From: a virus
Taxonomy: Duplodnaviria; Heunggongvirae; Uroviricota; Caudoviricetes
Virus record (IMG/VR): IMGVR_UViG_3300029468_000145
Length of the DNA stretch: 4,389 nucleotides
Strand: one strand, 5' to 3'
Position numbers and translations under genes: made by a program. Positions 1 to 4,389 of the stretch are shown in pieces (positions within the stretch are counted from its first letter, which is position 1; each line of letters opens with the position of its first letter). Below the pieces are notes generated by a model, which was given only the letters and a program-made list of their open reading frames with translations, was not told where the DNA came from and searched no databases.

Positions 1-18
1 GCTGAAATTACCGCTGCT

Positions 19-352
19 ATGGAAAATAAATTGAAGATCAACATGGAACGTCAGTGGCCTGAACCAAAAGATGGTGAGCCTCGTTTGCACATTAAAGAAC
101 CCGGCAACTCTCCGGTAACTCCGGATGGTTGGGTTATAGTGCCGAAGAAACTAACCGCTGAGAACGGCGCTAAGGGTGTGCTATCCGGTGAATTTTCAGA
201 AACTACGTTTATAAGCTGCCCGGAATGCTTTGGTGATGATGATTGCGAAACTTGTGACGGCAGCGGGAGAATCGAAATCAAGGTTCCAGTCAGTTGGACA
301 ACTATCAAAACTATTTGGGCTAAAGGGTGTGAGTACTTTTCAATAGTAGCAC
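19..352 (+). CDS. Hypothetical protein with a C-x2-C-x6-C-x2-C-x-G-x-G zinc-ribbon motif (DnaJ-like CxxCxGxG signature); C-terminus lost in the N gap, N-terminus may extend upstream of the window
   Basis: Frame-1 ORF is open from base 1 (no in-frame stop in 1-18) and the ATG at 19 has no obvious Shine-Dalgarno, so the true start may be upstream. Translation contains ...ISCPECFGDDDCETCDGSGRIEIK.... Composition looks protein-like, whereas the opposite-strand ORF 51-308 is S/P/L-rich. The ORF runs into the 42-N gap at 353, so the annotated end at 429 is not trustworthy. Confidence 0.45.
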
Positions 353-394
353 NNNNNNNNNNNNNNNNNNNNNNNNNNNNNNNNNNNNNNNNNN
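353..394. other. Run of 42 N: assembly/scaffold gap or masked sequence
   Basis: Uninterrupted N characters at 353-394. True length and content unknown; reading frames cannot be carried across it. Confidence 0.95.
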
Positions 395-444
395 TTTATA
401 ACTTAAAAGCATTAAAAAACCGCTTATAGATCAAAAGAAATCTA

Positions 445-478
445 CGTCAAATATTACTATATTTCAATGTGTTATAAT
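445..478 (+). promoter_or_regulatory. Candidate sigma70 promoter with extended -10 (TGtTATAAT at 470-478) for the downstream 80-aa ORF
   Basis: Perfect TATAAT hexamer at 473-478 preceded by TG at 470-471, in a strongly AT-rich stretch (395-480). No good -35 hexamer, which extended -10 promoters can tolerate. Predicted start about 484-487, 25 nt before the ATG at 511. Confidence 0.35.
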
Positions 479-510
479 TACCCCGTACATAAAATGGGGG
501 GGGACACAAA

Positions 511-753
511 ATGTTCAAACGCTGCATCACCAAGTGTGGAAGCACACCTGACATCCAAGCTTTTATTAATGAAGATGGTAAGCTTGTTGTTGAGAGGAGT
601 GGTCCTTTTATTAGCAAACAACTTATCATTACCTCTCCAGCGGAGATGGCCGGGGAATGGATAGTTTCTGAACCAGAGGAGTTGCACATCCCGCTTCCTT
701 ATGGCCCTCAGGGACTGATTTATAACCGTTATGTTCAGAAGGAGGCGGGTTGA
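511..753 (+). CDS. Hypothetical small protein (80 aa)
   Basis: ORF with ATG at 511, preceded by a G8 tract (496-503) 7 nt upstream that can pair with the anti-SD. The candidate extended -10 promoter lies just upstream. An in-frame stop at 490-492 fixes the start. Balanced amino-acid composition. The competing antisense ORFs (478-924, 447-689) are low-complexity and run through the promoter. No family recognised. Confidence 0.45.
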   Translation: MFKRCITKCGSTPDIQAFINEDGKLVVERSGPFISKQLIITSPAEMAGEWIVSEPEELHIPLPYGPQGLIYNRYVQKEAG

Positions 754-1032
754 CAATGTCAGGCATAACATCGCCGAGAAATCGAAAGAAAAACAGAACA
801 AGGTAAACGTTGACCTTGCAGCATCAGGCATGGAGTACAGAGAGCGCCTTAACATGCCTGTTATCACTGAGCAGGTATCATGAGAGCAACCTGAGCACTC
901 ACGCGAGTATTTCATGGAGCGCATCAGATACTATCGCGAGCAGTCGTTAAACATGCCCAAGGGAAGCAACCCATGGTATATCGATATGGATGAACAGAAC
1001 GCCAAGAAGTAAACGCAATTTGAACGAATGCG

Positions 1033-1058
1033 AACCCGCCGAGTGCGGGTTTTCTTTT
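1033..1058 (+). terminator. Intrinsic (rho-independent) terminator T1
   Basis: Stem ACCCGC (1034-1039) pairs with GCGGGT (1045-1050) around a 5-nt loop CGAGT, followed by T-run TTTTCTTTT (1050-1058). Lies 21 nt after the TAA at 1010-1012 that closes the frame-2 reading frame. Confidence 0.6.
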
Positions 1059-1063
1059 ATCTG

Positions 1064-1088
1064 AACTCGCTACGGCGAGTTTTGTTTT
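1064..1088 (+). terminator. Intrinsic terminator T2, tandem to T1
   Basis: Stem AACTCGC (1064-1070) pairs with GCGAGTT (1075-1081) around tetraloop TACG, followed by TTTGTTTT (1081-1088). Ends 3 nt before the GGAGA Shine-Dalgarno of the 1102 ORF. Confidence 0.55.
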
Positions 1089-1101
1089 ATGGAGACAAGA
1101 A

Positions 1102-1446
1102 ATGTCAGATTTGGCTATGAAAGTTTTGAAATGGCAATCGACTGGCGATGTTGGCATCAGTAGCGCAACTCTTGCCTCAATCGCATGTGGACTGAAAAAG
1201 AATATCTATGATCATGGCTTCGGTGCTCCACATGACGCAGCCGATTTCAGACGATGCGTTGCACTTGTTGAGCAGATTCCAGAAATCAGAGATTCATTCG
1301 ACAAGGTTGCAAAGCGCGTTCCGGCATTCAAAGGCATCCTCAACGAATGGGATTCTCTCGTTGCTCTGTTGAAGTCTGAAATGAAGATACACGGAAACAA
1401 AGCACCAGAGACTTACAGAAGAATCAGCGAGCTACGCAAGGACTAA
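1102..1446 (+). CDS. Hypothetical protein (114 aa), function unknown
   Basis: ATG at 1102 with GGAGA (1091-1095) 6 nt upstream; TAA stop at 1444-1446. Clean ORF with ordinary composition and no overlapping plausible alternative. I do not recognise a family from the sequence (MSDLAMKVLKWQSTGDVGISSATLASIACGLKK...). Confidence 0.65.
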   Translation: MSDLAMKVLKWQSTGDVGISSATLASIACGLKKNIYDHGFGAPHDAADFRRCVALVEQIPEIRDSFDKVAKRVPAFKGILNEWDSLVALLKSEMKIHGNKAPETYRRISELRKD

Positions 1447-1483
1447 CGCCTCACACTCGATGAGGCCTGTACATATCTGATAG

Positions 1484-1508
1484 AGCCGCTATATGGCGGT
1501 TTCTTTTT
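1484..1508 (+). terminator. Intrinsic terminator-like hairpin T3 directly upstream of the alpA-like gene
   Basis: Stem CCGC (1486-1489) pairs with GCGG (1496-1499), extendable by G-U/A-U pairs, loop ATAT(G), followed by TTTCTTTTT (1500-1508). A second hairpin without a T-run sits at 1448-1466 (GCCTCA/TGAGGC) right after the 1102-1446 stop. Confidence 0.5.
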
Positions 1509-1523
1509 GCCTGGAGAATTAAG

Positions 1524-1715
1524 ATGACCGATACCAGCCTGATTCCTGAGAAAGAAGTGATGAACAAGCTCGGTGTTTCATCACGTCAGACAATCTGGAA
1601 CTATACCAAACGGCACGGATTTCCGAAGCCAGTCAGAACCCACCCCAAATCATACCTTCGTGAAGCTGTTGAAGGGTGGATTCTTAACGGTGGCGTTAAT
1701 CAGAAATGCTCCTGA
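1524..1715 (+). CDS. alpA: AlpA/Vis-family small helix-turn-helix protein (prophage transcriptional regulator / excisionase-like), 63 aa
   Basis: ATG at 1524 with GGAGA (1513-1517) 6 nt upstream; TGA at 1713-1715. Translation has the characteristic AlpA/Xis-type HTH (...EVMNKLGVSSRQTIWNYTKRHGFPKPVR...YLREAVEGWI). Size and position next to a P4-type integrase fit this family. Confidence 0.75.
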   Translation: MTDTSLIPEKEVMNKLGVSSRQTIWNYTKRHGFPKPVRTHPKSYLREAVEGWILNGGVNQKCS

Positions 1716-3055: not shown

Positions 3056-4389
3056 ATGACAGACGCAGATAAACAACCTACCTTCCTCTTTCACGATTAC
3101 GAAACCTTTGGAACGCACCCCGCGTTAGATCGCCCTGCACAGTTCGCAGCCATTCGCACTGATAACGAATTCAATGTCATCGGCGAACCCGAAGTCTTTT
3201 ACTGCAAGCCCGCGGATGACTATTTACCCCAGCCTGGAGCAGTATTAATTACCGGTATTACCCCGCAGGAAGCACGGGCGAAAGGAGAAAACGAAGCCAC
3301 GTTTGCCGCCCGTATTCACTCGCTTTTTACCGTACCGAAGACCTGTATTCTGGGCTACAACAATGTGCGTTTCGACGACGAAGTCACACGCAACGTTTTT
3401 TATCGTAATTTCTACGATCCTTACGCCTGGAGCTGGCAGCATGATAACTCGCGCTGGGATTTACTGGATGTTATGCGTGCCTGTTATGCCCTACGCCCGG
3501 AAGGAATAAACTGGCCTGAAAATGATGACGGTCTACCGAGCTTTCGCCTTGAGCATTTAACCAAAGCGAATGGTATTGAACATAGCAACGCCCACGATGC
3601 GATGGCTGATGTGTACGCCACTATTGCGATGGCGAAACTGGTAAAAACGCGTCAGCCACGCCTGTTTGATTATCTCTTTACCCATCGTAATAAACACAAA
3701 CTGATGGCGTTGATTGATGTTCCGCAGATGAAACCCCTGGTTCACGTTTCCGGAATGTTTGGGGCATGGCGCGGCAATACCAGCTGGGTGGCACCGCTGG
3801 CGTGGCATCCTGAAAATCGCAATGCCGTAATTATGGTGGATTTGGCAGGAGACATTTCGCCATTACTGGAGCTGGATAGCGACACATTGCGCGAGCGTTT
3901 ATATACCGCAAAAGCCGATCTTGGCGATAACGCCGCCGTTCCGGTTAAGCTGGTGCATATCAATAAATGTCCGGTACTGGCCCAGGCGAATACGCTACGC
4001 CCGGAAGATGCCGACCGACTGGGAATTAATCGTCAGCATTGCCTCGATAACCTAAAAATTCTGCGTGAAAATCCGCAAGTGCGTGAAAAAGTGGTGGCGA
4101 TATTCGCGGAAGCCGAACCGTTTACGCCTTCAGAGAACGTGGATGCACAGCTTTATAATGGCTTTTTCAGTGACGCCGATCGTGCAGCAATGAAAATTGT
4201 GCTGGAAACCGAGCCGCGTAATTTACCGGCACTGGATATCACTTTTGTTGATAAACGAATTGAAAAACTGTTGTTCAATTATCGAGCACGCAACTTCCCG
4301 GGGACGCTGGATTATGCCGAGCAGCAACGCTGGCTGGAGCACCGCCGCCAGGTCTTCACGCCAGAGTTTTTGCAGGGCTACGCTGATGA
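3056..4389 (+). CDS. sbcB: Exodeoxyribonuclease I (exonuclease I), 3'-partial: the ORF runs off the end of the window
   Basis: ATG at 3056 with an in-frame TAG immediately upstream (3050-3052). Translation MTDADKQPTFLFHDYETFGTHPALDRPAQFAAIRTDNEFNVIGEP...NVRFDDEVTRN...HDAMADVYATIAMAKLVK... matches enterobacterial SbcB as I recall it, including the DEDDh exonuclease motifs. Frame is open for 444 codons to base 4389. The ORF track omits it only because it has no stop in the window. Confidence 0.95.
   Translation, partial: MTDADKQPTFLFHDYETFGTHPALDRPAQFAAIRTDNEFNVIGEPEVFYCKPADDYLPQPGAVLITGITPQEARAKGENEATFAARIHSLFTVPKTCILGYNNVRFDDEVTRNVFYRNFYDPYAWSWQHDNSRWDLLDVMRACYALRPEGINWPENDDGLPSFRLEHLTKANGIEHSNAHDAMADVYATIAMAKLVKTRQPRLFDYLFTHRNKHKLMALIDVPQMKPLVHVSGMFGAWRGNTSWVAPLAWHPENRNAVIMVDLAGDISPLLELDSDTLRERLYTAKADLGDNAAVPVKLVHINKCPVLAQANTLRPEDADRLGINRQHCLDNLKILRENPQVREKVVAIFAEAEPFTPSENVDAQLYNGFFSDADRAAMKIVLETEPRNLPALDITFVDKRIEKLLFNYRARNFPGTLDYAEQQRWLEHRRQVFTPEFLQGYAD

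Follow-up and report, generated by a model that had tools for sequence, protein, structure and literature searches.

The question raised by positions 1–1715 of IMGVR_UViG_3300029468_000145, a 4,389-nt stretch of viral DNA from IMG/VR to which we refer in full as the window, is what a cluster of small genes beside a phage integrase gene represents. A first-pass annotation had described here a co-directional run of small plus-strand open reading frames (ORFs) left of alpA/int, which we find at 511–753, 731–1012, 1102–1446 and 1524–1715, and had proposed that this run is a cargo module holding an undescribed anti-phage system. Our analysis leads to a different answer. Positions 1–1715 probably carry mosaic accessory genes from the pL operon of an sbcB-integrated lambdoid prophage, which assort independently and do not make up one system. 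The components are the tail of a DUF550 gene with a swappable zinc finger, a moron-like unit of ORF80 and a homolog of the DNA polymerase III subunit theta, ORF114, and a probable excisionase (Xis) of the AlpA type.

The nature of the element follows from its genomic context. Escherichia coli EH01-18-04-A (NZ_CP063515.1) matches positions 1–1715 at 100% identity over 98% of the length; the unmatched 2% is a masked run of Ns, and the 1715 positions correspond to 1702 bases of the bacterial record. A 41.7-kb annotated context around the window, taken from the same record (L001), contains genes for morphogenesis and lysis (TerL, the terminase small subunit, a portal-type DUF1073 protein, holin, lysozyme and an Rz-like lysis protein) together with genes for regulation and replication (Q, Nin genes, a replicative helicase, a replication protein, CII, Cro-like and CI-like (LexA family) repressors, and N). 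On one strand the order is N, Ral, RecT, Gp157, two Ea22-like genes, DUF550, ORF80, the interrupted theta allele (theta*), ORF114 and Xis. At the right end, Int follows on the opposite strand and then sbcB, and the TerL, lysis, Q, Nin and replication genes are located further left. Because L001 holds the full lambdoid gene set, the element is a complete prophage in the 5′ end of sbcB and not a satellite. A reading as a satellite was therefore abandoned, and the candidate identities of a phage-inducible chromosomal island (PICI), a P4-like element or a capsid-forming PICI (cf-PICI) were rejected on the presence of morphogenesis and lysis genes. The suspicion of the first-pass annotation that the window shows only the edge of the accessory cargo was correct.

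Within this prophage, positions 1–1715 make up the variable part of the exo-xis region nearest to xis, in the pL early-left operon. In L001 they lie between the recombination genes and xis on the strand transcribed from pL. The exo-xis block has been described as conserved through ea22 and followed by variable genes before xis, all expressed early from pL (PMC8614690), and variable gene content downstream of ea22 is also what we observe among loci with the same integrase. The segment thus shares its place between recombination genes and xis with the exo-xis regions of lambda (ea22-ea8.5-orf55), phi24B and 933W. As in lambda and the Stx phages, it is encoded on the pL strand, has Ea22-like genes just upstream and variable small genes before xis, and is accessory and non-essential in character (PMC8614690, PMC3824215). 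The gene content itself differs: where lambda has ea8.5 and orf55, this prophage has DUF550-zinc finger, ORF80, theta and ORF114, none of them functionally studied; its recombination genes are RecT and Gp157 instead of the Exo and Bet of the lambda type; and its Xis is AlpA-type, unlike that of the lambda set. The Stx2-converting phages 1717 and 2851 and phage mEp234 have the same ORF114-xis-int end, and their records mention sbcB integration. Altogether, phage genome segments of this kind have been described before, and RefSeq already carries an annotation of the region.

The independent inheritance of the genes became apparent from counts over 5,426 complete E. coli genomes. ORF114 is present in 963 of these genomes, the zinc-finger module in 189, the theta* allele in about 91 and ORF80 in 88, whereas a prophage-type junction at sbcB as found here occurs in 582 genomes, only 14 of which share the full 1–1715 arrangement. 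Since the pieces occur in such different numbers of genomes, they are not one multi-gene system; the accessory genes assort independently and form a mosaic, and the idea of a single module does not hold. A comparison of IMG/VR loci having an integrase at least 99% identical and an identical AlpA (with three exceptions of 97–98% identity or partial match) points in the same direction: the AlpA-adjacent genes differ widely, ORF114 is found in a minority of loci only and ORF80-theta in a single locus, and the other occupants include a 55-aa MHFRVTGEW gene, a 59-aa zinc-ribbon gene, DUF551, Ea22-like genes and more. The first-pass annotation was therefore right in calling this an integrase-adjacent accessory slot of variable content. 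In IMG/VR, 24 contigs carry the ORF80-theta* unit, against 88–91 complete E. coli genomes, and some copies of the region contain IS3 insertions. Besides that, the 55-aa gene (MHFRVTGEWNGEPFNRVIEAE...) is the commonest alternative beside xis (L017-type loci, L030, L035, L040, L070, L072 and L106), and certain prophages, such as L005, have it between theta* and ORF114.

The hypervariability of the slot among elements with the same integrase would also suit the proposal that the region is an undescribed defence or counter-defence system, carried as cargo in a variable hotspot near the integrase and expressed by the prophage. Nearby pL genes do include counter-defence functions, namely Ral in this prophage and anti-RecBCD genes in relatives, and ORF80, with its conserved predicted promoter and terminators, could be a moron-like gene expressed in the lysogen. 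We nevertheless consider defence cargo unlikely. The PADLOC check that had been suggested for the ORFs gave no meaningful hit: the best scores of PADLOC-DB v2 profiles in the window were PDC-M01B (E = 0.02 over 25 residues) and mad1, which matched the helix-turn-helix of Xis (E = 3.7e-4), and a scan of 69 ORF114 relatives yielded a single marginal match to BrxF (E = 0.0097). With respect to co-inheritance as a mark of a PADLOC-DB v2 defence system, no conserved multi-gene unit was found among the 5,426 E. coli genomes, in which the genes assort independently. In addition, two of the four genes are homologs of accessory proteins of nucleotide metabolism or replication, and one of these two is dead. 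Matches to replication proteins had been named beforehand as a result that would speak against a defence module, and this result was obtained in part. Likewise, the description of the genes as unassignable fails for the DUF550 gene and the theta frame and stands for ORF80 and ORF114, neither of which has an assigned function.

The dead gene is the interrupted frame at 731–1012 (plus strand), a pseudogene of a phage Hot/DNA polymerase III theta homolog. It matches PF06440 with 102.4 bits (cut-off 34.6; E = 1.1e-29) and is closest to Hot of phage P1 (1se7; E = 7e-29 over 73 residues), while the NCBIfam model for chromosomal theta scores 91.8, under its cut-off of 97. The motifs VNVDLAASG and REQPE, known from P1 Hot (1se7, 2ido) and E. 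coli HolE, are also found in this frame. The frame for the three-helix protein is not intact, as an in-frame TGA (881–883) stands precisely in place of the conserved REQPE Arg, corresponding to a single CGA>TGA transition. Unlike P1 Hot, the gene could therefore give rise to a fragment of 50 aa at most, and it is located in a lambdoid early-left operon, whereas Hot belongs to the late genes of P1. References cited in PMC7556043 and PMC2528190 describe Hot as replacing theta, stabilising the epsilon subunit and being active in the lysogenic as well as the lytic stage. An intact product of the present frame would accordingly be expected to bind and stabilise the epsilon proofreading subunit of polymerase III, a role that would have been lost here through the CGA>TGA change. 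Among phages, the nearest theta genes are about 70–79% identical (Klebsiella phages, HK639 and P1), and no copy of the ORF80-theta* unit (440–1012) above 80% identity was found in 50,697 deposited phage genomes.

The distribution of the stop codon could be taken to mean that it is functional, either by read-through or recoding or by producing a selected N-terminal fragment of 50 aa, for instance a modulator binding epsilon. The TGA is fixed in 24 of 24 IMG/VR contigs with the theta* allele, with the rest of the frame staying open; the 50-aa truncated product is present on more than 700 contigs, and none of three reconstructed intact sequences was found among approximately 15 billion proteins, so that the intact 93-aa form is not on record. 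The approximately 91 complete genomes with the allele carry it at an identity of at least 95%, followed by a gap to about 74%, and with copies this similar the open downstream frame may reflect the youth of the lineage alone. The decisive point is a sister allele in L103 (97% identical). It has kept the CGA but is disrupted separately by the loss of 2 bp 13 nt upstream, which is what one would expect if the gene is dispensable. That a young lineage shows two lesions of independent origin argues for decay and not for programmed recoding, and selenocysteine insertion or another programmed recoding at the TGA was rejected on the basis of this frameshift allele. Furthermore, an Rfam scan detected no recoding RNA element at the TGA, and the annotation pipeline PGAP treats the frame as a pseudogene, flagging an internal stop in three unrelated prophages. 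A function of the TGA thus appears highly improbable, and the frame is best read as a dispensable gene in decay that was inactivated twice independently.

ORF80 (511–753, plus strand), in contrast to the theta frame, which it overlaps by 23 nt, is a real coding gene under purifying selection. It encodes an acidic 80-aa protein (pI 5.3) and belongs to phrog_9613 (E = 2.6e-50), a PHROG of unknown function; scans with Pfam, NCBIfam and PADLOC profiles gave no match, and the AF2 model was unreliable (pLDDT of 46) and was not used in a fold search. Relatives of ORF80 form only nine clusters at 90% identity, and those with a named source are all from E. coli. The conclusion of selection is drawn from the comparison with the most divergent homolog (P0068, in L116; 70% identity), which gave a dN/dS of 0.12–0.15 at a dS of about 1.6. 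A promoter-like element upstream of the gene (441–478, plus strand) is near-invariant between the window and L116: about 40 nt, including a perfect extended –10 that was read by eye (TGTTATAAT, 470–478, plus strand), are almost unchanged even though synonymous sites are saturated. This conservation points to a private promoter of ORF80. In L116, the gene is located in a different prophage region, after the replication genes, and the cassette would therefore seem to be mobile or moron-like. Like phage morons, which are cassettes of promoter, gene and terminator, ORF80 (with theta) combines a predicted extended –10 promoter with tandem intrinsic terminators; classic morons are located in late regions, whereas the ORF80 unit is part of the early-left operon and co-directional with it. 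A cassette of this kind with a conserved private promoter could encode a conversion or exclusion gene expressed in the lysogen. At the Shine-Dalgarno position of ORF80, alignment with L116 and L103 revealed a G8 homopolymer (496–503, plus strand) that is polymorphic in length, reading GAGGAG in L116, GGGGAG in L103 and containing six Gs in the annotated 94-aa forms. This polymorphism explains the competing annotations of 80, 85 and 94 aa, those of 80 and 94 aa being found on at least 1000 contigs each. The tract itself could modulate translation or act as a phase-variable element.

The second gene with a family assignment is the one at the left edge of the window. What had been described as a small zinc-ribbon protein is in fact residues 108–229 of a 229-aa DUF550 protein, whose gene (L001:19680-20369) starts outside the window and is represented here by its 3′ part (1–352, plus strand; codons 108–223). 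The full-length protein matches PF04447, the family of the dATP/dGTP pyrophosphohydrolase domain, at residues 48–143 (E = 4.5e-42; 142.7 bits against a gathering score of 23), covering profile positions 1–96 of 97. The catalytic domain ends at approximately window position 107, and only its last 36 residues fall within the window. In line with this assignment, the protein shows a weak sequence match to the structure of the MazG-like MazZ (7ody), and a DUF550-containing protein of a Z-genome phage has a reported dGTP/dATP pyrophosphohydrolase activity (PMC12884076). The gene shares the PF04447 domain with the MazZ-type dATP/dGTP pyrophosphohydrolases of Z-genome phages; we found no evidence of a PurZ/DatZ context around it, and the prophage that carries it is of an ordinary lambdoid type. 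The domain is fused here to a DnaJ-like Cys4 module and not to DUF5664: the 86 C-terminal residues contain CPEC...CETCDGSG, a DnaJ-type CxxCxGxG Cys4 motif, after the linker GNSPVTPDGW.

This linker provides insight into how the mosaic may have been assembled. Many E. coli matches start at window position 103, which corresponds to codon 142 within GNSPVTPDGW, so that positions 103–352 (plus strand) can be regarded as a shuffled C-terminal zinc-finger module; elsewhere in E. coli, the same module is attached to genes annotated as Ea22-like, DUF551, DnaJ or DUF550. The linker, GNSPVTPDGW(ISCSERMP), recurs in the slot proteins of related elements (L030–L106), where it joins unrelated N- and C-terminal domains, including DUF550, Ea22-like, the DUF551-type "THWMPLPEPP" and the zinc finger. 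As it connects many different domains and coincides with the start of matches at 103, GNSPVTPDGW appears to be an in-frame joint of domain shuffling that is at the same time a breakpoint of the DNA mosaic. The gene is followed by a masked run of 42 Ns (353–394) standing for 29 real bases in NZ_CP063515.1 (cgcagcaagatgggtgatgaaaacaagta), which offsets the window coordinates by 13 from the source. The hidden bases include the end of the DUF550 gene (its final six codons and its stop), and the concealment of this stop gave rise to a 136-aa ORF (19–429) in the mechanical ORF list; this ORF reads through the Ns and was discarded as an artefact.

ORF114 (1102–1446, plus strand; phrog_1229) encodes a basic, all-alpha protein of 114 aa (pI 8.95) with a much wider distribution. 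The record note of NC_011357 equates it with HK022 p30 and with ORF114 of phage 434. These proteins and gp03 of Stx2-1717 belong to the same family and occupy the same place directly upstream of xis; nothing distinguishes the copy in the window, which shows 95–98% identity to abundant E. coli prophage proteins. A profile search retrieved 2,803 representatives at E ≤ 1e-3 and 622 at E ≤ 1e-10 (clusters at 50% identity). Despite this size, ORF114 had no match among the Pfam, NCBIfam and PADLOC profiles; none of the 69 scanned relatives (0/69) matched Pfam, and in PHROGs they matched families of unknown function only. The residues S20, P43, D45, D48, R51, C52 and W83 are invariant, within a family constellation of S-S / P-x-D-P-x-D-F-x-R-C / W-D. 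Structure prediction gave a confident model of seven helices, whose fold has no counterpart in the PDB; when the PDB was searched at the sequence level, neither single proteins nor the family profile gave a hit with E below 0.39. A literature search on ORF114, on HK022p30 and on the N-terminal peptide turned up no relevant paper and no published function.

The family ranges from Enterobacteria to Burkholderia, marine phages and one actinobacterial phage. For example, a Burkholderia prophage has a homolog two genes upstream of an HTH_17 excisionase and the integrase; in a marine phage the homolog follows RecT and RdgC, and another homolog is located near SSB; Salmonella P22-like prophages show the order Ea22, DUF551, ORF114-like, xis. 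ORF114 thus seems typically to be the last or nearly the last gene before xis, or to lie beside recombination genes. With neighbours of this kind, a role in counter-defence or host takeover acting on DNA metabolism is a possibility. Compared with defence cargo, a function that benefits the phage fits better with relatives that, across very diverse phages, are located in lytic early regions beside recombination genes. Longer members of the family have N-terminal extensions that are mutually unrelated and without Pfam match save one. The exception, P0182 (558 aa), combines a CCA-adding/poly(A) polymerase head, an RNA-binding domain and an HD domain with a C-terminal ORF114-like domain; no other fusion partner that was found had a recognisable function. 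Besides that, we observed in-frame deletion chimeras (P0015, P0047, P0053, P0063, P0026 and P0033), in which parts of ORF114 are fused to fragments of DUF550, Ea22, Erf or Kil, with junctions at short shared motifs such as "...AGIS|SATL...". These chimeras look like snapshots of prophage decay by microhomology-mediated deletion. One of them, P0063 (PF04447; 38% identical to ORF114), had seemed to connect ORF114 with DUF550; this homology was rejected, P0063 being a DUF550::ORF114 deletion chimera.

Signs of decay raise the further question of whether the whole region is a decaying, non-functional remnant of a defective prophage. The theta pseudogene, the many chimeras of DUF550, ORF114, Ea22, Erf and Kil fragments in the databases, the IS3 insertions and the lack of a close ORF80-theta copy among deposited phage genomes would all be compatible with a remnant. 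However, ORF80 is under purifying selection, ORF114 is conserved over about 2,800 clusters and its model folds confidently, the gene set of the prophage is apparently complete, and phages that were isolated as viable particles, such as mEp234, 2851 and 1717, share the ORF114/xis/int end. A remnant is accordingly a very improbable description of the region, and we return to mosaic accessory genes of a lambdoid prophage.

As a general feature of this mosaic, the joints tend to coincide with transcription signals. Two predicted intrinsic terminators on the plus strand, at 1032–1052 (hairpin of –12.0 kcal/mol) and 1063–1082 (–11.9 kcal/mol), each followed by a T run, would close the ORF80-theta unit, and a third follows ORF114 at 1483–1502 (plus strand; –10.5 kcal/mol). 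In total, 7 terminator-like sites were found compared with 2.7 expected in shuffled sequences. Phage matches start at 1047, 1074 or 1090, that is, at the tandem hairpins (1032–1082), and others end at 1466–1478, next to the hairpin at 1483–1502; together with the peptide linker at 103, these match boundaries fit with recombination at shared joints. The first-pass annotation had assigned each gene its own punctuation. This is borne out by the predicted terminators and the extended –10 of ORF80, but not by the overlap of ORF80 and theta or by ORF114, which has no evident promoter. Its statement that the region is more AT-rich than sbcB holds modestly (45.1% versus 50.4% GC, Ns excluded). The tandem terminators also overlap a weak Rfam match to rsmX at 950–1085 (24 bits against a gathering score of 56; E = 0.14); an identity as rsmX was dismissed as a chance, hairpin-driven similarity.

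From these features and the lambda paradigm, we infer the transcription pattern and the physiological roles of the genes. After induction or infection, RNA polymerase modified by N would start from pL and pass the intrinsic terminators, and all genes of the region would be expressed early. The early, non-essential functions might then tune the host nucleotide pool (DUF550), replication fidelity (theta, now lost) and the timing of the decision between lysis and lysogeny, and the products of ORF80 and ORF114 would act on host targets. In the repressed lysogen, the terminators would insulate the modules from each other, and the private promoter of ORF80 alone could fire. The hairpins and the conserved peptide linker would double as recombination joints and in this way give rise to the mosaicism.

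Several points weigh against accessory genes as a sufficient description. The absence of an assigned function for ORF114 and ORF80 also favours defence cargo. The invariance of S20, D45, D48, R51 and C52 suggests a specific catalytic or ligand-binding function of ORF114 beyond a generic accessory label; that the family is a new kind of enzyme or ligand-binding module directed at a universal target of the host appears rather unlikely. A consensus promoter scan called no plus-strand promoter, the backing of the extended –10 being its conservation, and the activity of the ORF80 promoter as well as the read-through from pL are deduced from the sequence and from the example of lambda. Finally, the nonsense allele of theta is very abundant, with no intact sibling on record, which is somewhat unexpected for pure junk.

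To the right of the accessory genes, the window contains the integration module and its junction with the host chromosome. A probable AlpA/HTH_17-type excisionase is encoded at 1524–1715 (plus strand), as judged from its match to phrog_66 ("excisionase and transcriptional regulator"; E = 1.9e-8) and from its position. Its scores against AlpA and HTH_17 of Pfam (17.8 and 16.8 bits) are under the cut-offs of 21 and 27; it is annotated as AlpA, overlaps the 3′ end of int, which is the canonical position of xis, and its counterpart in mEp234 is annotated as similar to the phi24B excisionase. By similarity, the minus-strand gene at 1696–2874 codes for a tyrosine integrase of the phage 2851/1717/mEp234 type, which uses the sbcB site. 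The host gene sbcB (exonuclease I) occupies 3056–4389 (plus strand), and attR, the junction between prophage and host, lies within its first codons at about 3072–3101. The record of phage 1717 annotates a 13-bp duplication and that of mEp234 an attP similar to sbcB. Since matches to genomes whose site is empty begin no earlier than about 3072, the phage end appears to provide exonuclease I with a new promoter region and a new N-terminus (MTDADKQP...).

Altogether, integrase-proximal small genes of E. coli that had seemed unassignable prove to belong to the variable end of the lambdoid exo-xis region, which is well described, and with regard to an undescribed system the outcome is mainly a clean negative: two of the genes can be assigned by a simple profile search, and one of these is dead. 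The region offers a worked example of lambdoid mosaicism, with joints at terminator hairpins and at the GNSPVTPDGW linker, and theta with its two independent inactivations illustrates the decay of accessory genes. The remaining interest is limited to the small ORF80 cassette and the ORF114 family. As a very large family without a Pfam model and with a predicted fold absent from the PDB, ORF114 would be a reasonable target within the "dark matter" of phage genomes.

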